A stretch of 64,000 nt of DNA from Cyanophora paradoxa CCMP329. Its lineage: Eukaryota; Plantae; Glaucophyta. The notes beneath the pieces were generated by a model, which worked only from the letters and a program-made list of their open reading frames with translations, was not told where the DNA came from and searched no databases. Of the stretch, positions 4,247 through 42,500 are shown in pieces (within the stretch, counting starts at the first letter, position 1; every line of letters starts with the position of its first letter). The stretch spans positions 1 to 64,000 of the forward strand of contig QPMI01000658.1 of NCBI GenBank assembly GCA_004431415.1, given 5' to 3'. The position numbers and the translations under genes were made by a program.

Positions 4247-4621
4247 CTAGAGCTCCCCCCCCCAACCCCCCCTCCCCTCCCCTCTCTCCCCTTCCCCTGG
4301 GGCTCACCCCTGCTAGCGTTTCCCGAGCCCTGTACATACGACGAGAGCGACCCGAGGTTTTCCTTCCATCCTGCGTTCGAGTATTTATTGCCAGCGCTAC
4401 GAGCTTTCTGTTGAGCATGACGCCCGTCCGTCGACGTCATGCATTTTCTTCAGGCAATAGCGACCGATCGAAATTGATATCCGGAGCTCATACACGCCTG
4501 CCAGGCTGCGCATGATATAGCTACTACCGTAAACGTAGTTCTTATACCAGGATACTAGCTGCATCATGCCTGCAGCTGCATGTGCCATCGTCCGACGTCG
4601 ACGGTCGATGTTTCGGTGCAG

Positions 4622-6564: not shown

Positions 6565-6877
6565 TAGCTGCGAGGTCCGTCAAGGTATCAAATTTTAGCT
6601 TAAGCTTCATGATCCGATGATCGATATCATTGCTGCTTCAATTGCAAGCTGAAGCTGATCATCTTCGGTTAATGAGCTAAGCATAAGCTTAATAACTCAA
6701 TTCTACTTCAGCCTGACTTGAGCTGAAGCTCACTCGCTTAGGCTTAAAGCTTCAGTTCCTTCCTAGCCCAGGCGTATATACGTACTCGAGCTCGCCCTCA
6801 GCTCACTGAGTCACGCTTAAGCGTCCTCGCCGCGCCAGCAGATCTTTCTTGTCTGACGCTTTCTCTTTCTACCTCAG

Positions 6878-8228: not shown

Positions 8229-8919
8229 CGAGAGCTAGGCTGTGCGGCTCCCATCTTTTGCGAATAACCTCCCCGCGAGCCCCTGATCATGAGTATACAT
8301 AGCGCCTCCCCCGCCCTCCCTCTCCCCCTCCCCCCCCCCCCCCCCCCTTTCCCCAGCTAGCTCACTCATCAGCTGGAGCTCATCGTTTCTCCCCCGCCGC
8401 CCCTCCCCCTCTCCCCCCGTCCCCCTGGGGCTTCCCCTGCTAGCGTCCCCCGAGCCCTGTACATACGAGAGCGATCCGAGGTTTGCATCTCAGTCATACG
8501 TACGGGCTAGCATACATACATACGTCAGTCAGGAGCTCATCGTTCGCTGGTTTTGGTCATGCTTCGAATATCTAAGTGTTATGAATACGCCGTGACGGTC
8601 CGCGAAATTGCGAGAATCTACGAGCAAGAGCTAGACTGCGGACTAGCTATATAGCGACCGTCGGACACGAGAGGGAGCGAGACTACCGTATATCTAGAGC
8701 GGCCGGCACTTCGGATTCGACCTCAAATATATATTCAATTGCAAGGCTTCATGATCAAATACTAATTGCCGGGGTTTGGAGCTAAAGCTCACACAAAGGC
8801 ACAGTGATGTATAATTAGAAACGCTTCGAAGTCCTATCATGCTTGTGTACTTGGAAGTCTTTTTAGAAAACAGAGACCGTCGGACTGGATAGCGGCCTTG
8901 TAGGCCGTCGAGTTGCGAC

Positions 8920-10683: not shown

Positions 10684-11656
10684 GATGACTCAGTTAAGTC
10701 AAATGGCCCGCGCTGTGTTACGCCCGAGCTGTGCTATATACGCAGAGCAAACTGTGTATGTATAGCTGTGGTCAGAGTTTGTCAAGGTGTATACGTACAC
10801 CACTGAAAAAGCGCGCACACGTGCACGTCACGGCGTAGACGTCCGACTGGCACAAGGTCGTAGCTGGCTTTGCTAGATGCGCATGCAGCACTGCAGCTTG
10901 CTTAAGCTTCCAAGCCTGGCAAGCTTGCTTGGCAAGCGCCGCTAACGTTAGCTGTACTACTGCTGCTGTATACGTAGCCGACTACCGTACAGTACTAGCT
11001 GTAGTAGCTAACACGCCTGCGGAGAAGCCGGACGTGCTACGTTATACGTACGGGACGGTACGGCCTGAAATGGTTCGGCCACTGAGTCACGGTATACTAT
11101 GATAGAATAGGCCTAGGAGACCCGGGTCACCCGGCCCGAGTCAGTGTGACTCATCATGATCACTGAGTCAGTGACTCACACAGTGAGTGACCCGACTCGA
11201 GCTCGGCCCGGCGGCCGGCGCGGGCCGGGGAGTCCGAGTCTGTCCGACCGTCGGACGCCGGACCGAGGGTCCGACGACGAGTCGACGACTCGCGAGTCGC
11301 GACGGCCCGGTACCGCTGTTACCCAGTACTTGAATTATAAGTTTATAACTTAGTAACTCAATCTATCAGTACAGTATAATACAGTATATAAGCCAGGGCC
11401 GCGGGCTTCATGTTGGGCCCTAAGCTTGAGCGATCGTGCGAGATGAATTGAATGTCGCGATCGCGATCGCAAAACCGAATCGATATATAATCGAATATTC
11501 GTTGTGCATATAGAAATCCAAAAATGAATTAATGCATATTGGGGGTACAATAGATGGCCGGGCGGCTGCGGCGCAGAGAACAAATGTTCACAGTATTGGA
11601 GTAACATTCTGTTCTTTTTTAACGTTTTCACGTAAATAAAATATTCACAGTATTAG

Positions 11657-11912
11657 TGTCGCGTGCCGCGATTCCCTCGGATTAGGCTAGCCGGCAGTCT
11701 ATGCGTAGCCGCTAGCCCTAGTCTAGTGCTATCGAGCAGCTAGCTCTAGCACTCTCTGTATTCTGACTTAGCGCCGGGCGCGACTCCGTTTGGGGGTACG
11801 CGATCCCTGGACGGGTACACTTGTGAATAGACCACTTGTGCTCCCAGCTACAGCCCCAGCCCGTGCGTGACCGCACGGACGCTGCACCGGGTGGGAATCC
11901 TCTCATCCGACA
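11657..11912 (+). repeat. 5' LTR (256 bp)
   Basis: Exact direct repeat of 30087-30342; TG...CA ends with a 5-bp terminal inverted repeat. Confidence 0.97.
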
Positions 11913-12457
11913 GGCGCCATCTGCTCACGGAGCCAGAACCCCGATCATCAGCGACCCGTCATCAGCAACCGACCCAGCTCGGCGACCGCGGCTCAGCCGG
12001 CGCGCAGGTAGACCTCAGCAGAGGTCGTGGGTCGCTTCTCGCGCCCCGCCTGCGCCGCTCCGGGCTGATCCGCAGTTGGCGACCGAACATTCTGGAAAGA
12101 ACCAGAACTTAGTCCTGCGGATCCAGGAACGCGCGCGAATACCGAGGGATCCCCGTCCCGATCGGATCGTCGCCGTTTCCTGAGCGAGCTGCGTGCGAGC
12201 CCGTGGGATCATTCCTGATCGGTCGCTAGTCACTCGCCGCGACGCCAGCCTTCTCCGGCTGTTGCGATCGTGCTGGACAAGACGAAGAGCGATCGGATCG
12301 ACGGCTGAGGCGTGCGCGCCCGAGCTGTCTCCGGAATCGCCGCAGCCGAGCTAGTGAGCTTGCTCGCCGCTGCTGTGGACCACGACGGCCTCGGATCTCG
12401 AGCGAGGCACATTCTCTCACGGAAAAGCGTGGCATTACGTCGCCGCTTGACCTGAGA

Positions 12458-14034
12458 ATGTCCTCGGGGACCGGAGCCTCCGCGGAGTTCGTCGTCCGGG
12501 CCGCGCACGCGCGTGGCGCCGCCGACATGGACTCTATGAGCGGATCAAATGTTTTGCAATGGATCCAGAGCCTGCCGAAGCTGCCGCCGGGCAGCGATCA
12601 GCGCACGGTTCAGGACCACCTCCGCCAGTTCGAGAGCTGCGCGAGCATGAGCAAGGACTTGCTCAGTGTCTCGCCGACTGCACACATTGAAGTGCAGAAG
12701 CGAACTGGGTGGGCTCTTCTCGGCACGCTAGATCACGGGCACCCCGTGCGCCAGAACATCTCGCTGTTCCAGAGCGCCGAGCAGATCGACACTCGCGAGC
12801 TCGAGAAGCTGAAGGCGTACCGGGCCGAGCGTGCGCGCACGAGCACGGCGGACCCGCGAGACGTCGCGATCCTCGAGACGCTCGACGAGAAGATCGCGCA
12901 AGCCGAGGAGGGCTTGCAGCGGACCGCCCTCACGGTCACGTACACCGCGATCAGGCGCCGTCTCGAAGATGACGCCGAGATGCGGAACCCTGACCGGTAC
13001 AAGGCGCTCCTCGACCTGCCGCACGTGGGCGAGGCGCCGGAGGCGTTCTATCGCCGCGTCCTCGACTTGAGCATCATCCCGGAGTGCCGCGAGGCGCACG
13101 AGACACCGCTTATGGCACTCATGCGCCACGCGGGCCAGATGCTCAAGCGCCGCACTCGCAATCAGTGCCGCGACTTCGAAGACTCCGAGATTTCGGACAC
13201 CGATCGCCGGCACATGATGACGAACTTCTCCACGGCTCGGAAGATCTATGACGAGCTGTCGCAGAAGATCGCGGACCGCGAGATCACGGGACCCTCTGCG
13301 GTCATCGACCTGGTAACCAAGCGCACCAATGAACTGGGCGCCTGGGACGTCGATATCTCCAAAGTCCCCGGCTCGGCCCTAGTGCTGGGCTCGCGCGGGA
13401 CGCCGCTGCAGGCGCCCACGGCTGCCTCGCGCACGCCGCAGAGCGCGCCGCCGATCACGCACACGCCAGCTGTCCCCGTCGTCCCCTCGCGCTCGAACGC
13501 GGGCGCCGGCGCGGGCACGCGCATCATGCTCGCGACGACGGTGTCGGAAGCCGAGATCGCAGAGCTTGAGGCAAACGCGTACGGGTGGGACGCGGACGAC
13601 GCCGAGGATCAGAACGCCGAGGTCATCTCGTTCCTGCAGCTCATTGCTCGGGACGAGCCCCTCGTCGTAGTCCGCGCGCTCTACCCGTCGGCGTCCGCAC
13701 CGCCGCCCCGCCTTGACGACCCGGTCTATCAGCAGAAGATCAAAGACTTCCTGAAGGCCCGGGGTCTCCCCGAGAAGCCCCGGCGGCCGTGCCACTGCGG
13801 CGAGTCGCACTACTCGTTTGAGTGCCGGACCAACCCGCGGCCTCTGCCCGAGTGGTCGGCAATCAACCCGGCCAAGCGCCGCGGGCCAACGGGCGCAGGC
13901 ACCGGTGACCCGAAGCGCCGGTTCTACCCGCGCCGCAGGGTGGGAACGGCCGCTCGAGCCCCCCGCCCCAGCAAGCTGCAGGGCCCCGGGCGTGCTACAA
14001 CTGCGGCAAAACCGGCCACCTGGCCGCGTCCTGC
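12458..14034 (+). CDS. gag: Gag region: putative capsid plus two Zn knuckles
   Basis: First ATG ORF after the 5' UTR; atypical knuckle CHCGESHYSFEC at 13790-13825 and canonical CX2CX4HX4C CYNCGKTGHLAASC at 13993-14034 (in the -1 frame). The capsid assignment is positional inference. Confidence 0.75.
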
Positions 14035-17000
14035 CCGGCCCAGGCGCAGACGCTCGAGGCCGCGGTCCGCCGCGCGCTTGCAGAACACGCCGCCGCCGCT
14101 GCAGCCCCGCCCGTGCCGCCCGCGACGCCGGCGCCCTGGGCTGACCCCAACGCCTTCACGATCGCGCGCGCCATGCTCGAGCAGGCTGCCCGAAGCGGCG
14201 CCGCCGGCCCGTCCGCGACTGCACTGCTTCCCGCGCCGACCGGCGGCCACGGGTCGGGGCCCACGGCGGCCCCGGCGCCCGCCGAGCTTGGCAAGGAAAA
14301 GCACGTGTACCGTGTGCGCATCGTGCGCAGCGACGAGGCGTTGGTCGACGATACCTTCCGAGCCTTCACCGCAGCGGCCGCGGCGCACGCCGCCGCGCTG
14401 CAGGACCCCCGGACGGCCCCGCTCTCAACGCGGTCGCCGCAGCCGCCACCGCTTTCGCGATCGCAGTAGTGCAGCTGTCCGGGGAAAGCCGCCCAGACCT
14501 GTGCCCCACGGGAGCCGAGAGGCCGGCCCCCTGCGAGGCGCAGGACCTGTTGCCGACCCGCCCGGAGTCGGGCCTGGACGAGGGGGAGAAGAAGGTCGCG
14601 TTCGACGCAGTGGACGCCGCCCTCGAGGAAATCGCACTCCTCTTGGCGGCCGCCCCGGACCCAACGGAGGTCGAGGGCGCTGACGCAGCAGCGAAGGGTC
14701 CCGCGCCGACGCCCGTGCCGACTTCTTTCCCCGCCGAGCTCGCCGCCGGCATCGTGGACGCCGCCCTTGAGGAGGTCGCACTCCTCTTGGCGGCCGCCCC
14801 GGACCCAACGGAGGTCGAGGGCGCTGACGCAGAAGCGAAGGGTCCCGAGCCCGCGACGGAGCTCGCTCCCACCAAGTCGGTCCCGAGACCGCCGCCGCCG
14901 AGGCTCCGGCGGACCCCGCCGCCGGCGTGGGCTGCTGCCTGGGGTACTCCTCGGGGCCGAGACGGTAGCGAGCCTCGAGGTGACCGACGACGGCGCCTCC
15001 CTCGCCGACGAGGACGCGACCGTAGCGTCTAAGGAGACCCTGCGCCTCAACCGCGCTCGCCTCCTCAGCGCTAGCCCCGGCCTAGACCTCACTCACTTCG
15101 GAGCCGTTGAGTTAGAGCCGGTGAAGGGCCGCGAGCACGAGCTGGGGCCCGTTCCTCTCTGGAACGTGGACGCGCACAAGCTGAAGGGCGCCGCGTCGGT
15201 CCCGCTCGACCGCGCGGCGTTCCTGTACCCAGCGCCGTGCGAGACTCACTGCGGCTGCACTGTGAGCGAGGGGCTGATCGAGGTCCGGGACGAGCAGTGG
15301 TATGCCACTGCGTTCCGCTGCCCGGCCCGCACCCGCCAGACGCTCTCCTTCTTGCTTGCGGCGTTCTCTCAGCCGCTCGCCACCGAGAGCACGTACCTCG
15401 GCTCGCGGACCCTCCCCACTGCGTTCCTGCAGATGCTGGGGCATGACCCGCTGTCCCAGGACACGCTGGCTCACGCCTGGCCGACGCACTATTATGAAAT
15501 CATGAGCCTCACGCACCAGGCCTCTCGCGTCGCCGCGAAGTGGGCCGGGGCCACGCGTGGCCGCACGCCGAGGGCCTCACGCCCGAGGGTCGCCCCGCAG
15601 TCGAGCCCGACGCCCACAAGCTTACGAAGCTTGGGGACGAGTGCGTCGCTACCGCCGGCTGGCTGGAGCCATACCGCCGCCACTGGAGCATTGGCCAGCA
15701 CTCGCCCGTGGCGGCCTCTCTCGAGCCGCACGAGATGACAGTGTCGGGCCGCCGCCAGCTAATCGAGCTGAGCGAGCTGTTGCCGGCACAGGACCGCCTC
15801 CGCCTTGCGTGCGCCTCGACTGTTGCGGGCTATTTCCTGCACCGCGTCGACTACGGTGCCCCGGGCACCGCCGGCGCCGTCGAGAAGATCCTCGGCCGCT
15901 TCTTTAAGTTCGCCGAGCCGCTCATGGTGGACGCGCGGGTCGACGCCTATGGCTTCGCCCTGCTGGCCCTCGAGCACGCGATCCAGTGGAAGACCGTGGC
16001 TTGCATCGGCGGCCGCGCCGGTCCCCACGACGCCCACAAGAGCGCCGTTGCCCTGGCCGACGGGAACCCTCTTGTCCCCTCGGACTCGGAGTTCACGGAA
16101 GCCGTTCACTCGCTTGCCGTCCTGGCTGCCTCCGTTGAGGTTCCGATCCCGGGGCGGGCACGTCTCCGCTCGGATCGGGACGCCGAGGGATGGCTGCGGG
16201 CAGCGCTCGCGGAGCGTCTGACTGCGTACCGCGACGGCCGTGCCCCCGCCTTCCCGGTCGTGAGCGAGGGCGAGTCCCGCACGGTTGAACGCGTTCCGGT
16301 GGAGCCCCGCGTCGCCGCCGCCCGCGTTCTGCACCTCCGGGACCTGCACTTGTGCGACACCTGGCTGCACTGGCCGCGCCTGCACGGGGCAGAGCCTGGC
16401 ACGTGGAGGGTCGGCCGCGTGCGCCCGATCACGCGCACCACGCAGTTGCCCCTGCACGGCACGACGCGAGGCGGGCAGCTGCCCACGATCGTGCCTGAGG
16501 AGCTCTACGTGCTGAGCCAGCTCGGCCCGCGCCCGCCGCTCACCGCCCTGTGCGATGCAGCCTGGGCCCGCACGGTTCCCGGATCCGCCGGGGCCGCGGA
16601 GCTGCTCCGGTACATCGAGGGGGCCAAGGCGGGCGACCGGGCCCACCTCGTCATTCTATTCCGTAGGCTGCTGAAGAAGCGGGCCGGTTTCAATGACGAG
16701 GCTGTCAAGGACATGATCGCGCTCGTGGAGAAGTGGCGCACGGATGCAGGCAGCCGCACCCCCACTCCTCTCCACGACCTGCCCACCACGCCGAAGCCGG
16801 CGTCGGACACGACGGGCGCCTACACGGCGAAGGCCGTCAGCGCGACGATCAAGGAGGCTAAGGCCTGCCTGCCGCCGCGCCCGCCTGTGAAGGCGCTCTC
16901 GCCGAGGGACCCGCCAGCGCCGGCGCGGCCGGCGCCCGTTCCTGTCCCGCCGCCTGCACCGACGGCGAAGCTCGTGACCTTGCACGCCGCGGCAACATGG

Positions 17001-20000
17001 CCGCCGCTTGCGAGCCCGATGGCGCCGCGGCCCACCGCCGCTCCGACGCCGCCCGCCACTGAGCCCGCGCCTGTCGAGCCTCGCCTGAGCGAGCCGCTAC
17101 TCGACGTCGCGCGCGCGACCGCGCCGGCTCCCGGCAGGCCGCCCGTCGCGGCGAGCGTGGCCGCGGGGACGGGGTCGTGCGCGTCAGCACCCGTGGGCGC
17201 GGCTCGCAGGGGCCACGAACCCGCAGCGCCCGCCGTGGGCAGGCTGAGGGGGAAGACGCCGAGATGGGCGAGCGGGGCGACGGCGATGAGGCGCCCGAGG
17301 AAGCGCCGCCGCCGCCGCCGCCGTCGGCTATCGATGAGAACCTGAGCCAGCGGGCCCTGTACGAGGCTATGGGCGTGATGAGCGGCGTCCTCGCAGTGCC
17401 GGGGTGCCCGCCTCGGCTCTGTGAGGGAAACAGATCACCGAGTGGCCCATGACGGCCCGGTCTGATCTCGCCCACCGCTGGAGCATCCCCTTCGACGCAC
17501 TGAAGGGCACGTTCGAGGACCTGCGGGTCCCGCACCTCAAGGCGTTTCTCGCCAGCGAGAGGAGCACGCCAATCCAGAACCGCCTGGATGGGCCGCCCGT
17601 GCCGCACGAGGAGCCGCCGGAGGGCCGCGTCGCGCTCAGAGCCGATCGCACCGTTCGCCTCGCGCGGCTCAACGCGGCCGCGTTCGAGCTCTTCATGATC
17701 GCGCTGGGGCTCCGTGGCCCCGTCACGCCCCACTCCCACGATCTCCCGTTCCACCTGCATGAGTGGACGGAGCAGCAGTTGGAGCACTTCCTGACTCTGC
17801 GTTGGACGATCCCTGCCACGCGCCTGCCGCGGTGGACGCACGGGGGCCGCTTCAACCCGAGCGCGGCCGTCATCCCGCCGCAGTGGGCCCAGTACCTCTT
17901 GCGTGCTCACACCATGTTCCGCGCCGAGGCGGTTGGGACCACCGTTCCCTCCGCGGAACGCGCCGGCCTGGAGTTCCCGTACGGGGTTCGCTGGCTGCGC
18001 CGCCACCTGCAGCTAGGGACGCGCGCGCAGGAGGAAGCCGCCGAGAGCGACCCGCACAGGGGCTTGGCCCTGACCGCCCAGCGCGCGGCCTTCCAGGAGA
18101 AGGTCTTGCATGCCCTCGAGCGTCACGCTGCACGGCAGTCGTTCACGTTCGACGATGCGCTTGTGGGCACCTACATCGCCGATGAGCCTGAGCCCCGCCT
18201 CGAGCCGCTCGACATTGACCATGTCGAGAGCGAAGAGGAAGAGGGCGAGAAGGAAGAGGCGCCGGCTGCCATCCCTGCGGCGGCGCACAGGCCGTTCGAG
18301 CCGCACAAGGACTGGCAGCCGCGGCCGCTGTTCTCGTTGGCGGACCCGACGTACGCCAACGATCACAAGCTCTTGCGCGAGTACATGGACCGGAAACACG
18401 CGTTTTTCCGGCCCCTGGAATGCTATGAGCCAGGGTTCACTGAATGGGCAACGCTGCCCGCGATCAGCTACCCCTTGCGCTGGCAGCACGCCGGCGACGT
18501 TGACGAGTACAACGTCGACGTGCTCACGCTGCAGGACCAGCACATGGGCGAGCTGTGCTCAACTATGCTCAAGCGCGTCGGCCCCGCCGCGCGCGGCATA
18601 GTGAACTGGTTCTCGCTCGTAGGCCCGCCTCAGCGGCCGTTCGACGAGGATCCGGAGCTCTTCGACCTGCAGGGGCTTGCATTCCCGCACGCCGCCTGCG
18701 GCGTCAGCTTGGATATCGTGCAGTACCTCGCGGTCGGGACCCGTACCGCACAGTCTGCCGTCCCGACGTACACGGGCGCCTGGGATCTCACGCACGAGGG
18801 CACAGCCCACGCACCCGTGTGTTCGACCCTGGGCCAGGTCTCGCGGGTGCTGTATACCGCCTTCTTCCACGAAGGCGGCGGCGCGCGGAACGCCCGCCGC
18901 CGTACATGCCGCACCCCGAGCGCCCCACCCTGCACACCTCAGTCTTGGGCGGTAACATCGCCGACCCGAACGAGGAGGACGCCAGGACGCCGTTCGCGAC
19001 CCGCTTCGCGCGCGACGTCGCCGTGCTGGCCCTGCTGCGCCCGCTCGCCGACAAGCGCGTCGAGAACGTTGAGGGTCGCCTGCAGACGCGGCGCATCTAC
19101 GCGCCCCGCCTCGTGGCAGGCACGGCCACGCCCGCGCCGAACGCTGCCTGCGACAAGGACGTCGCAGGGGGCGCGCCGCACCAGCGCGAGAACAAGAAGC
19201 TGTGGCTCGCAGTGACGGTCGCCCAGCTTGCGAGCCAGCCCAAGAAGAGCCACGCGAACCCGCGGCTCGTCACCGCGTTCGGTTACGAGCTGCCGCCTTT
19301 CCCGAACTCACCTCCGGGGACGTGCCCTTGGGCGCCGATCCCGGCGGAAGAGGAAATCCTCGCGACGGCCATCGGTTTTACGCTGGCCTGGCACGCGCGC
19401 TTCTTCCAGCGTCACGCGCCGGGCAAGCACCTCCGCAGCCAGCACTGGGCTGATGACTTTCTGTCGGCTGCGGCCATGGACGTCGAGTCGGAACGCCCGG
19501 CTGACTACGTCCCCGAGATCGCTCGGGCGGTCGCCGATCACATGGATGACTTCAACAAGGTGTTGAACTCGTTCCGCTGCGTGGTGCCGGACGGTCTGAT
19601 GGTGTTCATTCACGAGGCCTTCCTGACTAAGCCGACGGCCAAGCCGGACCGCGGGTCCGACGTCTTGCCTCAGGGCAAGAAGGTCTTCGACGCGGACGCG
19701 AGGCCGACGTACCCGGACGGTCATCCCACGCTTGCGTGGAAGTTTGGCCCGAACAATGCGGTCGTGCCGGACCACGAGGGTCGTGCGGCGATCTGTGGGC
19801 GGATCCTGCTCGCGATGCTGCAGGGCTTCCAGTATCCCCGCATCCCGCTGCTCGCGCAGCGGGTGGACAACTGTGCGCCCCTGAACGCCGCCATGCCCCA
19901 GAACGTGGCCGAGGTCTTCAGGGCCCTCTTGCGCACTATGACGAGGGATGAGTGCGCCGACTCGGATGCCCGCGCGCTGGCGGACGGCATCCGCGCGTAC

Positions 20001-23000
20001 CTCACAAACATGCCGCACGGTCTCGGGTACCAGCGTCTTGAGCTCGGCTCGCCCCCGATGGCCGGCGCCGAGGACGCGTGGCCCGCCGGCGATGACCTTG
20101 GCGCCGGGGGCAAGAGTGGGATACAGCGCCACCTTGAGGCCGCCCGCGCCGCCGAGGAGCTGGAGAACTGTCCCGGGAACTTCCCGCTGGGGCTCATCTT
20201 TACCGATGAGGCTATACCCCTGCGGCCTCAGTTCGAGACGATGCTCCGTTCGCTCTACGCCGATCTGAATGTCGCGATCCGCCTCGCGCGCCCGATCGAC
20301 TGGGAGACGGACGACCCCGTGCTCCCCGACTGGGACGTTGAGGCTCTGCGCCCGGCGCTGATGTGGGACGCGGTCCAGAACAAGGGCGCCGCGCCCTCGG
20401 CCCGGCGCAGCCTGACTGCGACGGCGGCTGTCGATAAGGAGGCCGAAAGCCTTCTGGTTCGCACGCCGTACCAGCCGATCTACGAAGGAGCGGTCCGCGC
20501 GACGTGGGCGGGCGTGCGGTTCCAGCCGCCCTCAACCATCGTCGGCGGGCTCGCGGACGACCCCGCCGAGGCGGCGCCATCCGCCACCCCGTCGGCGCCC
20601 GCGCCGGCGCAGGCCGCTGCGCAGACCGCCGCGCCGCCGACGGCGCCGCAGCAGGCGCGGCCCCGGCGCAACGCGGGCCAGGCCGTTGGCCGAGGCGGCC
20701 GCGGGCAGGGTCACCAGCGGGGCGGCCGGCACCGCGGTCGCGACGGCCGAGGCCACCGTGACCGTGGCGGCGACCGCGGCGGTGGCCAGGCGCAACCCGC
20801 ACAACCCGCTGTCGACCCGAACGACCCGTTCGGGCTGGATGCGTTCCTCGCGCGGCAGCAGGGGTATGACCCCAAGACCATGCGCGTAACCGTCTCGGAC
20901 GGGAAGGTGAAGGTCGAGCGGATCGCCGAGAGCGCTCCGCCAGACCAAGCCCCGCCGGCTGAGACTCCCTCCCGGACCTTGATGCCGCCGCCCAGCTCGA
21001 GCCGCCAGGCCGAGGCAAGCTCGAGCCGCAGGACGACACGGCCAGTCGCGCGTCGCAGGCCCGCCGGACCCCTGAGCGGGCCTCGTCTCAGCGCCGCTCG
21101 CGCACACCCGAGCCGCGCCGAGCCCCGTCCAGTCGCCGCTCTCGCACCCAGACAGGCGCGAGACGCGGGGCCCCTCCACGCGCCGCGAGCGCTCCCCGGA
21201 GCCCCACCGGCAATCCCGGGCGCCGCCGCCGTCCCGCCGTTCGTTGGAACGCCGCGATCGCGAGGGCTCCCGACGCCCTTCGCCGGACCGCCGGGACCGC
21301 GAGGCCTCCCGCCGCCGCTCCCCGGACCGCCGTGATCGCTCGCCGCCGCGCCGCGACCGCAGCCCGCCGAGCCGACGGTCCACGGCTCGCGACACTCGCG
21401 GCAGGCGGAGCCCTCGCCGAGGCTCGCGGGAACGCCGCCGGAGCCGAACACCGTCCCGCTCTAGCTCCCGCTCGCGCTCGCGCGATCGGAGCCCGAGCCG
21501 GAGCCCCCGCCATGACGATAAGCGGCGCAAAAGCTCGAAGAAGGGCTCGCGCGACCGCGCCTCGCCGCGAGACCGCCGCAGCCCTCGCAGCAGCCAGTCC
21601 TCTCGCCGCCCGCCGGACCCGCCGCGCGGCGCCGTAGACGCTGCGTACAAGCGGCACGAGAACGACGCCCGCCTGCGAGGCTGCCCGCCCACATTGCGCG
21701 AGCTCTTCGACATGGTCTGGAAGGCGCAGTACGCTGAGATGCCAGACTCGCTCTCGGCGTCCGCGCGAGCTGAGCAGGCCACCGCGCTGGTCCTGATCAA
21801 GCTCCAGAACCAGATGGACGCTCAGTCCGCGTCGTCCTCGGCCCGCGCCGCCGCGCCACCATCGGGTGGGCAGCCGCCGACGGGCGGACGCAACGAGCGC
21901 CAGCAGCCCTTTCTAGAGGGGCCTGAGGGGCAGAGCGAGGCCGGTCCGCAGTCGGCGGCGCCGTCCAAGCCTGCGGAGGGTCGCGCCTCCATCTCTCAGG
22001 CCCAGGAGCGGTCATCGCGTGCGAGCCAGGCCGAGCCGCCGCGCGCAGACCAGTCGACGCCGGAGCAGCCGCGCGCCTCAGTGGCCGCGCCGCGCGCCTC
22101 CGCCGCCACGACTTTCAACCCCAGGCTGACGTCCCAGCAGGGGCCTCCTGCAGTTTGTGCGCGAGTGCTCGAGCTGCCGCGACGTGAAGATCCGGGGCCA
22201 AGGGGTCACGGAATTGGGGCTTTGGCTTCAAACAGTCGAGCGCCAGATCCGCACCGCCGCTAGCCACGCCGAGACGCGCGCCAAGCCCGGCGGCGCTCAG
22301 AAGGTCTCAGACGAAGCCTTCGCCCAGGCAAAGCAGGCCGCTCGGCGGGCCCTGGAAGACGTCTGCCGCGCCCTCCGGGCCGGCATCGATATGCAGATCA
22401 GCCTCTCCGCTGGGAGACGGGCATGATGATCTCGCTCCTCCCAGACGGGCCCCGTGCCGATCTCGAGGCTCTGCGGGCCACGCTCGATCGCACCAAAGAC
22501 TGGCGAGCCTTGCTTGAGCGCGAGCGCCAGCACGAGGCTCGCGTGGCAATGCAGGCCGCGGCAAAAGCCAACCCAAAGCCCTTCTTCGCGGTATACACCG
22601 TCGCAGAAGCGTCGTCACCCCGCGGGCACGAGGCCCGCGCGCCCTGTGACCTTCCCGCCCACTTGCATACGCCGGCGTCGGTCCGGGCCGCTGTGCCGGT
22701 GCCGGCGGACGAGAAGTACATCTCGATCCGCCGCGTCCAGACGGTCGTCCACGAGCCGCCCGCTCAAACAGTCGCGCCGCCGGCGCCAGCCGCGCCGCCC
22801 GCCCGGCCCCACCAAAGAGCCGCGAGCCTGCGCCGGCCTGGGCCCGCCGCCTGCTGCACAAGCTCGGGCCGCGCTCGACCGTGCTGGTCTTCAACTGGCT
22901 GTCGAACCCCGCGCAAATGCTGCAGGTCGATCCAAAGACCCTGGAGCCCGCCTTACGCGCGGTGCATCAGGCGATCATGGACCGCTACGGCATCTCGATG

Positions 23001-26000
23001 CGCAAAACGGGCTACAAGGCCCCGCCACGGCCGACTCGCGCGTGGTTCTCGGGTTCAGCGCCGACAGCGGCGTTCGCCCCGCAGAACGCGCTCGAGGCCG
23101 CCGCGATCATTTACCCCGAGGGCCTGACCTCCGACGAGGAAGCTCTCATGCCCGCGGGCCACGCCCTGGGCTCCAAAAACCGCCCGTCCCTCGCCGTGCC
23201 CCGCCCAGCAGAGGAGACGCCGCTGGGAACGCGCGCCGGCTATGACCCGCCCAGCGACGAGTTGCTCTACGCCAACCGCCACGGCCCGGGCCCGCGCAAG
23301 CGGACCAAGCCCTCGCCGTTGGCCGACCAGGCAGAGCAGCGCCGAGTCGCCGAGCGAGCCGCGGCTCGCCAGTCCCGGCCCCCATCCCCAACCGCAAGCG
23401 CAACGGACCTGTCGGGTCCACCCGCGCCGCCGGAACCAGAATTCCACGTCCGCCGCGCCCGACCTAGCTTCCCGCGCGACCGGGCCCTGGAATTCTTCCG
23501 GCCAAAGACACTGCACATTCACGGCAGCATTGCTATGCGCCTGCCGAACGGCCGCTCCGGCGCTGAACGGCCCGCTCGCATTGTTGTCGACACGGGCGCC
23601 CAGGGAACTGTAGTTCCCCAGGAAGTCCTCGACCGCCTGCCGCCCGACGAAGTCAATTACGTCGAGGGCCACACGATAGTCCGCGGTTTCATGGACCGGG
23701 ACAAAATTCGTTGTCGCCGCGCCGACGTAGTCTTCGTTCTGGGCTCGCTCCGCTTCTGCCGCCGCGTCTTCGTCGTCCCGCGCGGCGCCATGGGCGTTGA
23801 GCCGGACATTCTGCTCGGCCTGGACGCGATCCAGGCCGTCCACGGCCAGATCGACACGACGCTGTCCGGGTGGTGCCTCCGGGCCCGTGACCACCTGCAC
23901 CGCGAAGTCGTCGTCCCTTTTCGGCTCCGGACCAGCTTGGGATCCTGGTCCGAGTCCTGGGACCAGTAAAGCTCCCCGTCGGAGAGGCCCTCGTCCCATG
24001 CACGCTCAATGGGCAGGGCCCGGCAACGCGTGAGTTGCCGCACCTCTACGTCGAGCCGTCGCCGGAGTCCCCGCAAGCCTTGGGCGTACTCTGCCCTTAC
24101 CAGCTGCATAATCACCCGGGAGACAAAATGTTTCACGTGCGGTTGTGCAATCCTGGCCGGCAGCCGGTAACCCTGCCGCTAGGATCGGTAGTAGCGGTCG
24201 CTTCGGCGGTCGCCCTACCGCCTGGTGATTTTGAGTACGAACCTGAGCAAATGCCTTGTAGTGCGAGTGCATTGACAGACCTCTTGATTCGCCGGCTGCG
24301 AATCGTGCCTGCCAAACGCCGCACTGGACTCCGCCACTTTAATAGAAAAGCACGCATGCTTGGCGCGGCATATGAGCCCGCCAAAGACGTTGAGAAAATA
24401 ATCTCCACCCTACGTTCTGTCGTAGATGAGGCGGAAAAGCAGCGCGCTCTGTCTAGCGCAGCGCCTGCTGAGCCCGCCGACCCACCCCGCGCACCGCCCT
24501 ACGACGTCGACGATATAGTCGTCACGTTTGGCGAGCTGCCCTTCGACACAGCCGACCGGCCGTTGCAGGACCTTGATGCTATGAGCATCATTAGCCTCGA
24601 CGACGATGCTATGAGCACGTCGTCACGAAGCGCGTCCCCAACGCCGGCCCCGATCACAGGCCCCTCGGTCGACGAGTTCGTCGCCGCAGTCGAGGCAGTG
24701 TCCGTCCCCAGAGACGCCACCCTGCGCTCGACCTTCCCCGGTCTCTCCGAAAAAGCGGAGCGCGACTTGCTCGATGCAGTCCGCGCCATGCGCGGCGACG
24801 TTACGGTCCGCAAGGCCGCACCGGTCGCCGACGCCGAGGCCCCACCCAGAGTGTGGTCACAGCCTCGCTTTCGGCCCGGCCCGATGCCCCACCCCTACGA
24901 CTGCAGCACCCGACGCGAAGCCCGCTGAGGCACCGCGGCCGGTGCCTAATGCAGAGGAGGAGTGGCAAGAGCTGCTGAAGAAGATTCCTGAGCTCGGCTC
25001 TCACCCGTCAATCACGACGGCGCAGAAAGCCGAACTTCACGCGCTCCTGCGGCGCTACAAGGATGTCTTCGCAGACAAGGTCGAGGCCAAAGAGGGCACC
25101 AGCAACCTGCTCTATTACGAGCACGTGATCAAACTCACGACTCGCCTTCCGGTGTTCACGCCTCCGCGGCGTATGAACCCGCACGCCGAGGAACACGCCC
25201 GCAAGGAAATTCAGAAACTCCTTGAGCTTGGGCTGATCGAGCCCTCCCAAGCGGCATATGGCTCGCCGGTAGTGCTGGCCCCCAAAAAGGACGGCACTTG
25301 GCGTTTCTGTGTCGACTATCGGAGGCTGAATCAGATCACCGAGCGGGACGTGTTTCCCCTACCCCGCATAGACGACCAGCTCGAGCGCCTCCGCGGCTCG
25401 ATGGTCTTCTCGACTGCTGACGCGACTGCCGGCTTCTGGCAGCTGCCTCTGCACCCCGGCTCCCGAGCCTACACTGCATTTGTGGTCCCCTGGGGTCACT
25501 TTCAGTGGAAGGTTACGCCGTTTGGGGTCACGAACGGGCCCGCGGCATTCTCCCGCGCGATCACTGCGATCCTGGGCCCCTTGCTGACCACCTGCGTCGT
25601 CGCGTACATCGACGATATCACGGTCTTCTCACCGTCCATCGATCAGCACCTTCTAGACTTGAAGGCGCTCTTCGAGACGATCTCTAAGGCGAACCTGCGC
25701 CTGAAGCCGTCGAAGTGCCGCTTCTGCGTGCCTGAAATCGACCTTCTCGGCCACCGCATCTCCGCCGAAGGGATCCGCCAGGACCCTGCGAAGACCAAGG
25801 TGATCACGGACTGGCAGACGCCGAAGAACGCGGACGAGCTCCGCTCGTTCCTCGGCCTCGCCGGCTACTACCGCCGCTTTGTCGAGAACTTCTCCAAAGT
25901 GGTGCACGCCATGCAGCGCCTTCTATTGAAGGACGCCGTCTGGAGTTGGCCAGAGGACGGCCCCGCCGACCGCGCCTTTAAGGAGCTGAAAGAACTCCTG

Positions 26001-29000
26001 GGCCGCGATATTATATTGCGGTTCCCGGACTTCTCGAAGCCCTTCATTCTCCAGACGGACGCCAGCACCTACGCTATCGGCGCAATTCTGAGCCAGGCCG
26101 ACGACAAAGGCGTCGAGCGGCCGCTCGCGTTCATCAGCCGCACGCTGCTGCCGGCCGAGATGAACTACTCCGCTACGGAGCTGGAGTGCCTCGCAGTAGT
26201 CTGGGCCATTAAGTATTGGCGCCACTATCTGCTGGGCGGCCCCCAGTTCCTGGTGCGGACCGACCACCACGCCCTCCAGTGGCTGAAGACGCTGGACCCG
26301 ACGACGGGCCGCCTCGGTCGCTGGTCCCTGCTCTTGCAGGCCTACGACTTTGAGATCGTCTACCGCCCTGGCAAGCAGAACGGGGGTCCCGACGCGTGCT
26401 CGCGTCTCCCTAAGGACCACCCCGTCTGGCAGCCAGGCGGTGCAGACGGTTCCTCGTCCAAGCCCGCGGCCTACAAGGGCGCCGAAGGCTTCGGCATCCC
26501 GCAACATGCTGTAGGGGCTGAGCCTGAGGATCCCGACGTCCCGCTGGGCATCTTTAGGATGCAGCTGGGCCCGACCGAGCGGGCCCTGCGCCAGCTCGCC
26601 AACTCCGCCGGCTTCCGCGCGGAAGCCCCAGCCGAGGGTGGCCGAGCCGCTAGACGCCGAGCGCCCCGGGCGGCGCCTGCGAGCGCCCCCTCTTCCCGCC
26701 GGGCCGCTCCTCTTATGCAGAGGAGGAGTCGCGGCCCCCTGTGCCAGCCAGTGCTCCTGAGGCCGAGCCCGACGCCGGCGCCCCTGAAGCGCCCGCGCCC
26801 GAGCCTGAGGGTGAGGCTGGCGGTGCTGCGGAAACCGATTCCGACGCCGAGCCCCCGCCGCCAGAGCGCGCGCCGCGACGCCTGCCCCGCGAGCTCGCCA
26901 AGCTTGCTGCGTCGGCTGGGTTCGCTGAGGCCAAGGCCTCCGCCTCGGCTACTGACGCCGCCACGCGCAAGCGAGCGCGGGCCGCCCCAGAGCGCTTCGC
27001 GCCTCCCGCGCCAGAGTCGGTCTCGCCGCCCCGAAACGACGAGAGCCGGGCCCGGCGCCCGCTGTCGAGGAGCGCGAGGCTCCCTCGGACGCGGAGATGC
27101 CCGACGCCCCTGAGGGCGACCTGGGCGCCCCGGCCGCGCTGCTAGAGGACGCTCACGCAGAGGCCGAGGCCTCGGGCGAGATCGATGACGAGTCGCTGCC
27201 GGAAGGGCCTGTCCCCTCCGACGCCTGCGACGCTGACGGCTTCCCCCTCGCTCTTGCGGAGCGAGTCCCGAAGCGCTCGGAAACCGGGCCCCGTCGGTGG
27301 GGCGCCAAGGGATTTGCCGAGCCGCGGCCCCTGCATCCCGACGCGCTCTTCCCTCGCGGCCCCGCCTTGAGGCGGCAGCCTCGAGATGAGTACAACACGC
27401 GCCACTGGCGCTCCCCGGTCGACCCCTCGGATCGGCCGGTGCCGATTCATATTGAGTGGGAGCCGGAGGACCCTGAGGGCGAGCCGCCTCCCGGGCCTCC
27501 GCGCCGACGCTCGCTCTCCCGGAGACTGCTCGCCACCAGATCCGCGTTCGGCCGGTCCCCCCGGACCCCAAGCCAGCGCCGCGGGCTCGAGGTCGCCCCT
27601 CTGCCCGCGGGCAGGCTTCCGACGACGCCGCCCCGCTCGAGCCTGAGACGGTCGCCGCCGAGGCCGCTGCCCCGCAGCGGTGGGTAGAACTCGACCCTAG
27701 AGGCCGGGACGTTCGCCCGCCGTGCAAGCCGGTCTTCGTGGATACCGTCCTCGACGCGTGGGCCTGCGGACCCTCGCCAGCCGTCGATGGGGCGCTCCCC
27801 GACGCGCTGCGCCGTATGTTCCCGCCCGAGAAGCGCAAGCGTCTGCTCGCCGCTCAGAAGGAGGATTCCTTCTGCAAGAAGCTTCTCGCCTTCCACGCAG
27901 AGGGCGAGAATCCAACTGTCTGTACCCGCGGCTCGAGGCGCGACGCAGATCCCTGCTCGCCCAGCTGCGCTCACTGCCTGCGGGCCAAGGAGCGCTTTGC
28001 ACGCCTGGCCGGCGAGTTCAGCCTGGCCGACGACGGCGTCATCGAGCGCAACCCCTTGGTCCCTGCCGGCCGGTTCCTACCCGTCTTGCCGGACGCTTGG
28101 ATCGACAGGGTGCTCTACGCCTATCACGAGGGCTGGGCCCATCGAGGCGCGCCCGTGATAGCCCGTCGGATCGCCCTGCGGTTCTGGTGGCCTGGCATGT
28201 ACGCCTCCATCGCTCGCTTTGTGCGGTCGTGCCCGCACTGTCAGTTCGCGAAGGCCGCGAAGCCCCGCCGTACCGCCATTCAGGTGATACAGCCTTCGGG
28301 CAAGGGAGACCTGTGGCAGGTGGATATCTTCCACTTGGATATGCACGAAGACGGTTCGCGATACATCATCGCGTACGTCGACGCATACACCAAGTTCTGC
28401 TATATCTACCCGCTCTCCCGTATCTCCGGCGAGGCCTTGCTCGCCACCGCGATCGACTTCTATACGCACGAGGGCGTGCCCGCGCGCATCCTGACGGACC
28501 GCGGGTCCCAACTCGTTGGGGGCGCGTGGAACGCGTTCTTCAAGGAGAAGGGTACCCGGTTCGTGCACGCGGCCGCCTACCACCACGCCTCGAACGGCGG
28601 CGCCGAGCGCCTGGGCGGAGTCTACAAGACTCTCGCTTACGCCATGTGCCGTGAGCACAAGCGGCCGCTCTCTGACTGGCCTCTTTACAACGCCGATATC
28701 GTTCTCGCGTTGCGGACCACCGTGCACTCCGCCACCGGGTTCTCCCCGATGGTCTTGCACCGCGGTTCTGAAGTGCACCTGCCCTGCGAAGTGCGCTTCG
28801 GAGCCGGCGTCCGCTTCGTGAACCCCGACCACACGCACCCGGCTGATTACCTTCTCGCGATGACGCGAGCTGCCGCGAGCGCCGACGCTGCCTCGCGCGA
28901 GTACCGTCGGTTCTATCGGAACCGCATGGTTGCTCGCACCGGCAACCCGCCTCATCGTCGCCGCTTTGAGGTTGGCGACAAGGTATTGTGCTGGATGGGC

Positions 29001-30086: not shown

Positions 30087-30342
30087 TGTCGCGTGCCGCG
30101 ATTCCCTCGGATTAGGCTAGCCGGCAGTCTATGCGTAGCCGCTAGCCCTAGTCTAGTGCTATCGAGCAGCTAGCTCTAGCACTCTCTGTATTCTGACTTA
30201 GCGCCGGGCGCGACTCCGTTTGGGGGTACGCGATCCCTGGACGGGTACACTTGTGAATAGACCACTTGTGCTCCCAGCTACAGCCCCAGCCCGTGCGTGA
30301 CCGCACGGACGCTGCACCGGGTGGGAATCCTCTCATCCGACA
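30087..30342 (+). repeat. 3' LTR (256 bp)
   Basis: Identical to 11657-11912 and followed by the ATTAG TSD. Confidence 0.97.
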
Positions 30343-31928
30343 ATTAGAGTATAACATTCTGTCTTTTTTTTATTAAGGGCTTGATTGTTCAAGCAAACGG
30401 GAGCTTTTTTTACTCATTCCACTATATATATCTGTTCATCGAGATATCTCCCCTCTTCCCGGAGAAGTTCCCCCCCTTGGAGCCCCTTCCCTCCTTCCCC
30501 CCTCCGGATCCCCCTCGAGCTCTCTCCGGATCTCGATCCGCTCCCGGCCCTCCGGATATCCGACGGCGTGAATTCGAAGGGCAAGGGCACCCTCTAGTAG
30601 ATGTTAGAATTTTCTAGATCTAGAGGGTGGCTGGCTACTAGGCTAGCGCTGGCCATATATATGCATGGGGGGGTGCGCATGCACGTGGGTGGCATGCAGG
30701 TCGCGATCGAGTCCGAGAACGCGTGCCGCAGTGCGCATGTGCGCACTGCGATATCGATACATAGGCCTAGCCGCGGCGCCGCGGCCGGAGTCCGAGATCT
30801 AGACCGCCGGATCGGACTCCGAGAACGCGTGCGCGCAGCGATATATAGGCCTAGGTTTGCTATCTAGCTATATATAGGGCTTTATATAGCTGGCGCTCGC
30901 GATCGCTGCAGGGTTGGGGCAAGTGGCCATATGCATGTATATGGGCGCGCGGCCGCGGGGGCCGCGGCCGGCGTCGGCGGGCTCGTGGGGATGCAGATCT
31001 CAAGGGGCTGCTCGCTGTGTTAACGTTATAATTAATATTATAATATAATTACGTATACCACCGACGTGGGCGCCGGGAGCCTGCAGCTGGCAGCTGCAGG
31101 GCCGGCGCCGGCCGGGGCCGGTCGGAGTGAATTCGAACCGCCGGCGCGGGCGCCGCGCGCGGGCAGCCTAGCTGTACTGCAGATGGCCATGCAGACGGCC
31201 ATGCGCCTGCCGCAGTGCAGAGCTACAACTTCGGAGGCCGCTCGAGGGCCGGCTATGACCAAGGCGGGTGAAATTTGGTGCCGCAGTGCTCCGGAGCTCC
31301 CCGCTCGGGGAGGCACCTAGGCGGCGTGCCGGGCCGGGGTGCTGATCGGCTCTCGAGGTCAGCCAATTGCAAGGGGGGGGCCTTGGGGAAGGAAGGGCCG
31401 GGGAGGGGCCGCGGGAGCCGGGCCGGGCCCGCCTGCACTGCGGCACCTTGGCCCCGCGCGCCGCGGCGGGGCCGGGTCGCGGGCGAAGGTCAGACGGTCG
31501 GCCCGACCGCGGCCCGCGCGCGATTGAGCAGCACCCACCCTTGGCCTAGGCCTCCGGATCCCTCGAGCTCGCCCCGGCCCGGGCCCGGGGCCCACCGAAC
31601 GCGACGCTCCGGTCCCGGCGCAAGAAATTAAATCATTCGAATTAATATTCTACATGCACATGTGATCGCGAGTACCGTGTACGTAGTGCACGCGTACGTG
31701 TACGCACAAGCTGTAATGATAATACGCAGCTTAGATATAAACCGGAGCCCGAGGACCTACTAGGCTATAGAGCTATATCTAGTTTTATCTACATCGGTAA
31801 ATCTAAGCGCCGCGGCGGCCGACGACGCGCTGAATCATGATCATGATCAGTGCATCTAACTTTAGTAAGCGGCATATTAGTTCACAATATTAGTTCCTTC
31901 ACGCTGACGTTCTGTTCGCGCTGACGGC

Positions 31929-39557: not shown

Positions 39558-42500
39558 TTAGGCCGGGACGACGACAACGTTGATGTTGCCGTCGGTCTGG
39601 CGCAACACGAGGTTCTCGCCGGGCGAAGGGACCAGTCCGGCGTCGCCTGCCGTACGCGTCGCAGCTGCGTTCTCCGGCGGCAGCGCGGAGGGGGTGAAGG
39701 CCGGCCGGCCGCGGCCCCCCGCGGCGCGCTCGGCGTCCGTCGGCACGACCTTGACGGACCTCGGTGCTCCAATGCCGCCCATCTCGTTGCAGAGATCCCA
39801 CTCGCTGCGGTGCAGGCGCCCGCTGGGTCTGCCCACCGCCCGACGGCTCTGCATGCGGTACACCATCACAGCGATTGCGCCGAGGACGATGGCGCCGCCA
39901 CCGATGCCGACGCACACGCCGACGATTACGGGGACGCTGCTCGGGGCACCGCCCGACGACTGCGCTGGCGTCGCGATCGTCCCCACCGGCAGGACGGTGC
40001 CCTGCGACGTGTCGACGATGACGTTCGACATGGACGTGATGGGCTTGCCGTTGATGACGAGGGCGTTGCTGCTGATCTTCGCCTGCAGCGCCTGTACGAA
40101 GGCGGCTGGCGTGATGATCGTCCCGGTGGCCGTGTTTAGCTTCACGATGCCGATGTCGAGCTGGATCGGCACGACCTGTAGCAAAGCCCTCCCCGACCCG
40201 GCACCGCAGCGGCTTCCTGCTCAGCGGTTGCGTTTGCAGTGCATCGACCGCAACGAAACAGTGCAGACGGACCCTTAATATAGGCCCGGTAGCTATTGTC
40301 GGCGTCGCTAAAAGCAGACTGGACTGCTGCGTCGGTGAGGTTGCCGATGAAGGCCTTGCACTCGGCCTGAGAGTTTGCCTGCATTGTGACTGTGAAGGTC
40401 GCCACTTCGGTCCGCTCCGGCGTCGGAGAGGGCATGGCGGGCGCTGTGGAGGCTGGAGTCGGCTGTATGAGAGGACTGGGCGACGGGCTGGGTGATAACA
40501 AAGGGGTGGACGTCGGTGCGGTTGCATTCGCCGACGGGCTAGGCAACGGAGACGGGCTGAGCGTTGGCACTGTTGCATCTGCCGACGGGCTTGGAGACGG
40601 CGACGGGCTGGGCGTTGGCACGGTCACATCTGCCGACGGGCTTGGAGACGGCGACGGGCTGGGCGTTGGCGCGGTTGCATCTGCCGACGGGCTTGGAGAC
40701 GGCGACGGGCTGGGCGTTGGCGCGGTTGCATCCGCTGACGGGCTTGGAGACGGCGACGGGCTGGGCGTTGGCGCGGTTGCATCTGCCGACGGGCTTGGAG
40801 ACGGCGACGGGCTGGGCGTTGGCGCAGTCGCATCTGCCGACGGGCTTGGAGACGGCGACGGGCTGGGCGTTGGCGCGGTTGCATCTGCCGACGGGCTTGG
40901 AGACGGCGACGGGCTGGGCGTTGGCACGGTCGCATCTGCCGACGGGCTTGGAGACGGCGACGGGCTGGGCGTCGGCGCAGTCGCATCTGCCGACGGGCTT
41001 GGAGACGGCGACGGGCTGGGCGTTGGCGCGGTTGCATCTGCCGACGGGCTTGGAGACGGCGACAGGCTGGGCGTTGGCACGGTCGCATCTGCCGACGGGC
41101 TTGGAGACGGCGACGGGCTGGGCGTTGGCGCGGTCGCATCTGCCGACGGGCTTGGAGACGGCGACGGGCTCGGCGACGGGCTCGACGACGGCTCAATATC
41201 CTCTTTCGTGACTAGGCCGGGCGGGTCCGGCGCTTTCGACACGGTTGCGTTGAATGTCAAGTTGCCGATCGCAGGTTCCTGCTTAAGGACGGATTGGAGC
41301 TGAGTGGCGAGCTCATTGACCCTGTTTACATCGGCCTGTTCTGCCGTTGTGCAGTTCACCCCGTTTGCCACGTCCTCGGCAGTGCAGTTGCTGGTTGTCG
41401 ACGTCGACGTCGACGTGTTCGCAACAATGAGAAACTCGAATATGGTGGTACCGGTGCCAGCGAGCAGTTGGCGACGGCGGCCTGCGTCCTGTACGATCTT
41501 TGCGATGCGAATTGAGCTCAGCGGAAGCTTGAGCGTCTCGGAGAGGAACTTTATGAAGGCGTCCGTCGCCAGGTTCCTGTCGGCAATAATATAAAGAGCT
41601 TAAGAGCAACGTTAACAACGTATAAGAACATATATAAAAGCTGCGCACAGGTCGCGCTCGTCCTTGATAGCCTGGCAGACGAACGCTGTGGAAATAGGCA
41701 CGCGTATGCGCAAGATCAGCGGCGGATCATGATCAAATACTTGGCGGGAACCGAAATTAAGGACGAAGGTCGCTTCTTTAAAAAAGCAGCATATATAGGG
41801 ATGGCATGGAGGCGGCGCGGAACATAAATTGCAAGCAGCGCACCGACGGCAATCGAAGGTTTGATCGTGATCGTGAGCTGCCCAATACCTGGCCATAGGT
41901 CACGGTCAAGTGATGCGATTCTAGATCTTCCGGGAGCGAATCAAACAGGTCGCACCGTCCTTGACCACGACATACATTGTGCGAGTTCCGGAGTCCCAAT
42001 AATGCATACCGCCGGTCGCGCTGCTAGCGCTAGCCGGCACGGGTATGTAGGGCTCGGGCGGCTTGACGAACACGCCCCCTCCAGCAACCCCCAACAATTG
42101 AACTACAGGGAACACTTTGATCTCGAACACATCGCCGCGCGTGTAGTTGATGGCAAGAACTGCGGGTCCGGAGGGTCAGAGAAGAGAGTGAACACCGGTA
42201 CCACAGTAGACAGAGAAATATATAGGCCATGGCCATGGACAGCGCACCAGTGGAGGTGGATGCGCTCAGCGGCGTGATGGTGAGAACCTGGGGGACAGCT
42301 TCGCTGAAGCTAATGTTGACGTACTTTGACGCCGGGACTCTGCGAACCAATATATCGATGAGAAGGGAAAGCATCATCATCAAATTAAAAGAAAGAAGGG
42401 GCGGACACGAGGTTGAACAAAGACGGCTTCATCCGGCAGTTGGGCACGCCAGGGCAAGCGCCCGTATAGGCCGGCCCCTGCACAATGTCCAGAGCAAGGT

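Follow-up and report, generated by a model that had tools for sequence, protein, structure and literature searches.

The analysed window, 64,000 nucleotides (nt) of contig QPMI01000658.1 from the glaucophyte Cyanophora paradoxa CCMP329, contains a Ty3/Gypsy retrotransposon with long terminal repeats (LTRs), which spans 18.7 kb, as delineated by repeat comparison and Pfam domains. We focus here on the junction between its protease (PR) and its reverse transcriptase (RT), where two open reading frames (ORFs) overlap and where a C CCU UUU heptamer probably serves as a programmed -1 ribosomal frameshift site. The element is organized as follows, with all coordinates given in the window:

11657..11912, plus strand: 5' LTR of 256 bp with TG...CA ends; the 5-bp target duplication ATTAG lies at 11652-11656
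22650..23969, plus strand: zero-frame ORF with the protease, window frame 0, 439 codons from stop to stop, ending at TAA 23967-69
23568..23831, plus strand: retropepsin (aspartyl protease) domain from Pfam, with DTGA and ILLGLDA motifs read in the translation
23891..24928, plus strand: -1 frame ORF as assembled, window frame 2; in the reads it continues into RT
25281..26345, plus strand: reverse transcriptase (25281-25760; RVT_1, E 3.6e-35) and RNase H (26028-26345; RT_RNaseH, E 2.9e-40)
28089..28583, plus strand: integrase zinc-binding domain and catalytic core (Integrase_H2C2, E 7.2e-14; rve, E 2e-12)
30087..30342, plus strand: 3' LTR, identical to the 5' LTR at 256/256 positions, with the ATTAG duplication at 30343-30347

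The element was assigned to Ty3/Gypsy because its Pfam domains follow the order PR-RT-RNase H-integrase (IN), and its LTRs show the TG...CA ends and short target duplication of this group. It is a young insertion, with identical LTRs and the 5-bp target duplication still present. The protease is recognized by PF13650 (E 7.2e-5) at 23.9 bits, slightly below the 24.3 cut-off, and by PF13975 (E 5.6e-4). Sibling gene models occur on at least nine other contigs and are filed in EukProt under Cyanophora paradoxa. In length, the element far exceeds the usual Ty3/Gypsy size.

The zero-frame ORF and the -1-frame ORF share 79 nt (23891-23969), and the putative recoding signal lies at this overlap:

23915..23921, plus strand: slippery heptamer C CCU UUU (CCCTTTT), in phase with the protease frame, with zero-frame codons GTC CCT TTT
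23922..23927, plus strand: 6-nt spacer CGGCTC, read from the window
23928..23952, plus strand: hairpin with a perfect 8-bp stem (23928-35/23945-52) and a 9-nt loop (23936-44)

The heptamer follows the canonical X XXY YYZ pattern and stands in the zero-frame phase inside the overlap. Downstream of the spacer, the stem arms CGGACCAG (23928-35) and CTGGTCCG (23945-52) enclose the loop CTTGGGATC (23936-44), and the hairpin can be extended to 12 bp with one bulge (23923-27/23952-56). The zero frame then ends as ...REVVVPFRLRTSLGSWSESWDQ, with the final residues ...VVVPFRLRTSLGSWSESWDQ, at TAA 23967-69. Directly after TGA 23888-90, at 23891, the -1 frame (window frame 2) opens, and it reads ...PFSAPDQLG... 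across the site. No ATG occurs in this frame between 23891 and 23939, and the first one falls within a conserved domain encoded beyond the shift; the upstream ORF thus overlaps a -1-frame ORF that has no start of its own. An initial annotation of this DNA had proposed the in-phase CCCTTTT, the CGGCTC spacer, the 8-bp stem and the closing TAA 23967-69, and had named the peptides VPFSAPDQLG and ...SWSESWDQ for the two frames. Rereading every base in the window reproduced all of these elements, and both peptides match the respective translations.

Canonical XXXYYYZ heptamers are rare in the element, with only five in the 18.2-kb internal region. Given about 24 in-phase positions in the 79-nt overlap, our arithmetic puts the chance of an in-phase heptamer there between ~0.7% (rate in the element) and 2% (rate in the window). 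Of 18027 positions, 83 have a perfect stem of at least 8 bp at a spacing of 5-9 nt. What is strong about the site is the heptamer, not the stem alone. Taken together with the conservation described below, we consider it likely that C CCU UUU at 23915-23921 is a programmed -1 ribosomal frameshift site leading from PR to RT.

To establish the reading frames, we compared Logan contigs of the runs X1 (2012), X2 (2019), X3 and X5 (2024) with positions 23400-25400. A second comparison covered 23600-24300 with the runs X5, X14, X17 and X20, accepting contigs down to 80% likeness. The contigs of X1, X2, X3 and X5 are identical to the window over 23400-24843, including the C3T4 run, and over 23745-24057 neither a substitution nor an indel is present in the contigs of the seven runs from both comparisons. 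The run of four T is therefore real. The initial annotation had called for a decision between T4 and T5 in reads and sibling copies, and the answer is T4, with no extra base that would place PR and RT in one frame. Further downstream, the same contigs revealed two sites at which the window has lost a base:

24845..24847, plus strand: C run one base short in the window (assembly error); a C is inserted behind 24844 in all four runs
24892..24895, plus strand: C run one base short in the window (assembly error); a C is inserted behind 24891 in all four runs

These runs count three and four Cs in the window, and the missing bases are supported at full depth in X1, X2 and X3 and by 1458 of 1536.8 in X5. 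As assembled, the -1 frame stops at 24926-28, short of RT. With both Cs restored, it passes from window frame 2 through frame 1 into frame 0, the frame of RT, without a break. Two sibling models, P0012 and P0005, are likewise continuous across the 24844-24891 stretch, and a third, P0001, carries linker, RT, RNase H and integrase in 1682 residues. The two added Cs identify the second break between PR and RT as an assembly error, so that exactly one true frame change lies between PR and RT, namely at the overlap with the heptamer. This frame change is real, and it is the only one. The earlier statement that the -1 frame continues towards RT thus holds for the sequence corrected from four runs and fails for the assembly as it stands.

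Comparison of the window with P0001 exposed four further frame jumps near 26642-26696, 27031, 27474-27519 and 29339. Each goes the way expected if a base had been lost, and these are probably assembly errors as well. The other breaks, for which the initial annotation had reported no canonical heptamer, can be attributed at least in part to assembly indels, two of them shown in contigs and four inferred from the sibling model. More generally, the assembly drops single bases in short C runs. The guanine plus cytosine (GC) content by codon position carries a signal of its own, with a weak preference at third positions (GC3): the position with the lowest GC switches from window phase 1 to phase 0 around 23800-23950 and returns around 24850, which is consistent with the frame change. 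The PR/RT break therefore reflects biology, most other breaks in this copy are probably errors of assembly, and the distinction matters for genome annotation.

The sibling copies provide an evolutionary view of the same region. Over 23600-23936, a diverged sibling contig shows 53 differences in 337 nt, and downstream of the site diverged contigs show 28 differences in 218 nt (24031-24248) and 25 in 174 nt (24028-24201), placing the sibling lineages 13-16% apart on both sides. No indel was found in 23600-24300 in any contig of X5, X14, X17 and X20, diverged lineages included, and the diverged lineages therefore carry the same frame change. For 40 of the 81 differences that were listed, we determined the codon position. 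Of the 17 upstream of the site, 14 occupy the third position of frame-0 codons and 13 are synonymous (binomial p 4.7e-5); of the 23 downstream, 19 occupy the third position of -1-frame codons and 20 are synonymous (binomial p 1.7e-6). Among these 40 differences, the excess at third positions is absent in the other frames. From this pattern it follows that, with the break in place, each half evolved as coding sequence in the frame proper to it, and the pattern indicates purifying selection on both sides of the frame change in the diverged siblings. The diverged lineages have thus kept the frame change, apparently together with the signal, and the listed differences show coding constraint in the frame used on each side.

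The lineage seen at 24028-24201, with 25 differences in 174 nt and a depth of 202-235, occurs in X5 and X20 and is absent from X14 and X17; the runs therefore differ in the sibling copies they carry.

Between the diverged flanks lies a stretch in which the lineages appear identical, and a predicted RNA structure occupies most of it:

23907..24057, plus strand: 151-nt apparently invariant block, main family against siblings 13-16% divergent, deduced from contig merging and depth
23922..24057, plus strand: 136-nt multibranch RNA structure from folding prediction, closed by CGGCUC/GAGCCG

Diverged and main-family contigs both end at 23936, and the next contig, which starts at 23907 and thus overlaps them by 30 nt, shows no difference all the way to 24057/24060. 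The depth of this merged contig approximates the sum of the lineages, as in X14 (1481.8 + 108.6 + 81 against 1675). At the divergence of the flanks, about 19-24 differences would be expected in the block by our arithmetic, and none is seen. The block begins 8 nt before the heptamer, encloses heptamer, spacer, hairpin and stop codon, and reaches 88 nt past the dual-coding overlap. The predicted fold has an energy of -63.3 kcal/mol, matched by 6 of 200 shuffles, at a z of -2.19, and its ends coincide with the limits of the block. An invariant island of 151 nt amid ~15% divergence likely marks a functional RNA that is larger than the usual frameshifting hairpin. A search of 23700-24200 against Rfam gave no match at E up to 1.

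The sequence just past the predicted shift site encodes a conserved domain:

23939..24232, plus strand: conserved beta-rich domain with no named family, the first ~100 residues of the -1 frame, with no preceding ATG

It aligns with P0009, a 225-aa protein from an unrelated assembly (36-37% identity, E 3.9e-4; 7.7e-9 in tblastn). When the 345-aa -1 ORF was searched with HMMER against 1.84 billion representatives, four matches were returned, of which only P0009 spans the first 215 residues, and an in-frame fusion of PR with the post-shift domain was found nowhere among these representatives. Neither the domain nor P0009 matches any Pfam family at E up to 10. An AlphaFold2 model built from the two-sequence alignment is all-beta, at a mean pLDDT of 48.4 that is too poor for a fold search. 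The ESM Atlas returned unnamed clusters only; the nearest named entries are retropepsins (0.75-0.79), which we take as a lead and nothing further. A metagenome scan with the domain yielded 264 pattern matches, none of which was confirmed. A dUTPase-like identity was our first idea and was dropped for want of support. In the existing gene models of the siblings, the post-shift domain is missing entirely and invented introns span the breaks.

These introns raise the question of whether the two halves are joined at the RNA level, with a subset of transcripts spliced near the PR/RT boundary into a single frame, as in the plant element Ogre, and no slippage of the ribosome. The region around the site does offer 194 GT...AG pairs of the right length class, and gene predictors spanned the break in this way in the sibling models. 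However, the predicted introns vary between models, no good consensus was found among the 80 of the 194 splice pairs that were listed, and the ORFs overlap by 79 nt with no stop-rich spacer between them. The sequence past the overlap encodes the domain shared with P0009 and changes synonymously in the -1 frame, and is therefore coding rather than intronic. Splicing would also leave the in-phase heptamer as a coincidence, and we regard an intron as very unlikely.

Another reading takes the break as a one-base frameshift mutation that became fixed in a defective, non-autonomous family whose copies are made in trans, with heptamer and stem present by chance. Broken elements with identical LTRs are common, the direction of the frame change equals the loss of one base, and the energy of the hairpin is unremarkable. 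Against this stand lineages 13-16% apart that keep the frame change without any indel and in which synonymous differences dominate, in frame 0 ahead of it and in the -1 frame behind it, which means that both halves stayed under selection with the break in place. In addition, no in-frame variant at a share of at least 2% was present in four runs, and the probability of an in-phase heptamer by chance is only ~0.7-2%. A defective family of this kind is correspondingly improbable.

Some retroelements express pol separately, and the second ORF could in principle be translated independently, through internal initiation or through termination and reinitiation after the TAA, yielding no fusion with the protease. 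The -1 frame, however, has no ATG between 23891 and the start of the domain at 23939, its first ATG lying inside the domain, which makes the domain reachable only by ribosomes arriving from the protease frame. Reinitiation after the TAA would cost conserved residues because this stop lies downstream of the domain start, and separate translation has little probability in our view. Readthrough of the TAA at 23967 was ruled out, with many frame-0 stops ahead of RT. Finally, an error of assembly or sequencing that hides a true T5 or C4, with PR and RT in frame, recalls the losses of one base that were proven for C runs lying 0.9 kb downstream and the probable four more in pol, all in the same direction, and is nevertheless close to negligible given that the contigs of seven runs match the window over 23745-24057 while correcting the other two sites.

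Several points weigh against a programmed frameshift at 23915-23921. Frameshifting is a prediction from the DNA sequence, and the continuity of the PR ORF with an upstream gag is putative. The hairpin itself is unexceptional in sequence of 70% GC: at -13.6 kcal/mol for 27 nt it falls in the 2.1% tail, 11 of 200 shuffles fold as well, the extended 12-bp form (36 nt, -17.9 kcal/mol) is modest with a 3.2% tail, and a 40-nt window at the site reaches only the 20% tail by energy. One arm (23945-51) can alternatively pair with 23960-66. For the predicted 136-nt fold, covariation is unavailable because the block over 23907-24057 appears invariant. The identity of this block was deduced from contig merging and depth sums rather than base by base, and recombination or gene conversion could also have produced it. 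Moreover, the codon-position count rests on 40 of the 81 differences, and the library of the runs, and hence their accuracy, is not on record.

Frameshifting by -1 is a known, retrovirus-style route to making less polymerase than structural protein, and its mechanism is textbook knowledge. Applied to the present element, ribosomes translating the PR-containing ORF would place tRNA-Pro on CCU in the P site and tRNA-Phe on UUU in the A site. Lying 6 nt downstream and probably belonging to the larger 136-nt structure, the hairpin would resist unwinding, and a fraction of the ribosomes would slip back by one base, from CCU UUU to CCC UUU, and read ...VVVPF-SAPDQLG.... Shifted ribosomes would go on for about 1,800 further residues, through the beta-rich domain and then RT, RNase H and integrase, while the remaining ribosomes, presumably the majority, would terminate 15 codons on, at the TAA. 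The predicted outcome is a low ratio of RT and IN to the protease-containing upstream product, resembling that in Rous sarcoma virus (RSV) or at the pro/pol junction of mouse mammary tumor virus (MMTV) and human T-cell leukemia virus (HTLV).

A further canonical heptamer lies upstream, in the part of the element that precedes the protease:

17425..17431, plus strand: second heptamer of the canonical type, G GGA AAC, matching the phase of window frame 2; seen in the window only

Window frame 2 runs out shortly after it (...LCEGNRSPSGP*). Preceded by a TGA, the -1 frame has its opening exactly at 17425 and reads GKQITEWPMTARSDLAHRWSIPFDALKG.... From this point the -1 frame looks like real protein, making the heptamer a candidate for a second -1 frameshift site. 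The fold downstream of 17425 is unremarkable (z -0.52). Two of the five heptamers in the element are in phase at ORF overlaps, and a layout with two shifts is therefore plausible. Between 17425 and 22650, the window contains three frame changes and one in-frame stop.

The fuller version of this layout would comprise three nested polyproteins produced by two programmed -1 shifts, at 17425 and then at 23915, as an independently arisen form of the betaretrovirus strategy in which the invariant 136-nt RNA would drive the second shift. We regard it as a tentative possibility, with somewhat more speaking against it than for it. The nested sizes given for it, 1,670, 3,840 and 5,650 aa, depend on the window frames upstream of PR. 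If true, the element would carry ~3,800 residues of no known protein ahead of its protease. In the 11.7 kb before the protease, none of the seven ORFs examined (12230-23127) matches a Pfam family, and the Pfam scan recognized no Gag, neither capsid nor zinc knuckle, upstream of PR; both results are weak, since the frames there are unreliable. The stretch from 12230 to 23500 holds ~11 kb of open frames free of Pfam domains, with an arginine/serine-rich segment near 21300-21600.

Outside the element, several C-rich low-complexity segments at 2657-4281 and 6872-8236 are repeated 3.8-4.2 kb apart, at 85-97% identity, which suggests a duplicated block upstream of the element. A tandem array with a 51-nt unit occupies 40379-41290, where 13 overlapping 300-nt copies at 51-nt spacing show 64-100% identity to the reference copy.

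Among the titles listed in our literature searches, no paper joins glaucophytes, frameshifting and retrotransposons. The site offers a clean, testable recoding signal in the glaucophytes, and the gain is one of breadth and annotation rather than of principle. To place it, we compared it with systems in which the same sequence, the same junction or the same order of frames is described. The analogies drawn in the initial annotation, to the flavivirus heptamer (PMC11797035) and to the double -1 shifts of MMTV and HTLV (PMC12789967), agree with the accounts given there.

The likeness to NS1' of West Nile and Japanese encephalitis viruses is restricted to the slippery sequence: C_CCU_UUU is described as the West Nile virus shift site, with structured RNA close downstream (PMC11797035), in an RNA virus unrelated to this element, and Rfam gave no match here. 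Shifts by -1 are common in LTR retroelements: of the 51 animal elements, Ty3/Gypsy and others, surveyed by Gao et al. 2003, 28 place pol in the -1 frame and use classical heptamers, as summarised in PMC5009743. In contrast to the gag/pol shift of that summary, the protease here stays in the upstream frame. Skipper of Dictyostelium was considered as a precedent for a separate pro ORF and dropped, its PR being located in ORF2 together with RT according to PMC5006619.

Among plants, some groups of LTR retrotransposons are described with a GAG-PROT ORF followed by a second ORF for the other domains, and in Ogre the GAG-PROT and RT ORFs are parted by a spliced intron of ~274 bp (PMC6317226). The polyprotein of Ogre is thus split at the same point as here, between PROT and RT. 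In the present element, however, the ORFs overlap by 79 nt with a slippery heptamer, the host is a glaucophyte, and a non-coding, stop-rich spacer of the Ogre type is absent.

The remaining comparisons are with retroviruses. MMTV, Mason-Pfizer monkey virus (MPMV) and HTLV use two -1 shifts, and the one at pro/pol comes second (PMC12789967); in beta- and deltaretroviruses it is described just before the pro stop, giving a PR-RT fusion (PMC12789967, PMC7075266). The present site likewise lies just ahead of the protease stop, and G GGA AAC at 17425 is a candidate for the first shift. The double-shift layout is here a candidate only, with window frames that are interrupted between 17425 and PR. 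In RSV and the avian sarcoma/leukosis viruses (ASLV), PR belongs to Gag (PMC12789967), so that the protease sits in the upstream frame and a -1 shift at X XXY YYZ with a downstream structure leads into RT-IN, which is the order predicted for the PR/RT overlap described here. The present element differs from them in its heptamer, in being an algal Ty3/Gypsy element, in the ~11.7 kb without a recognizable gag domain before PR, and in a possible further site upstream. Taken as a whole, the signal is of a known kind, and it is less usual in the lineage of its host, in how large the element is, in the invariant island of 151 nt and in the possible second site.

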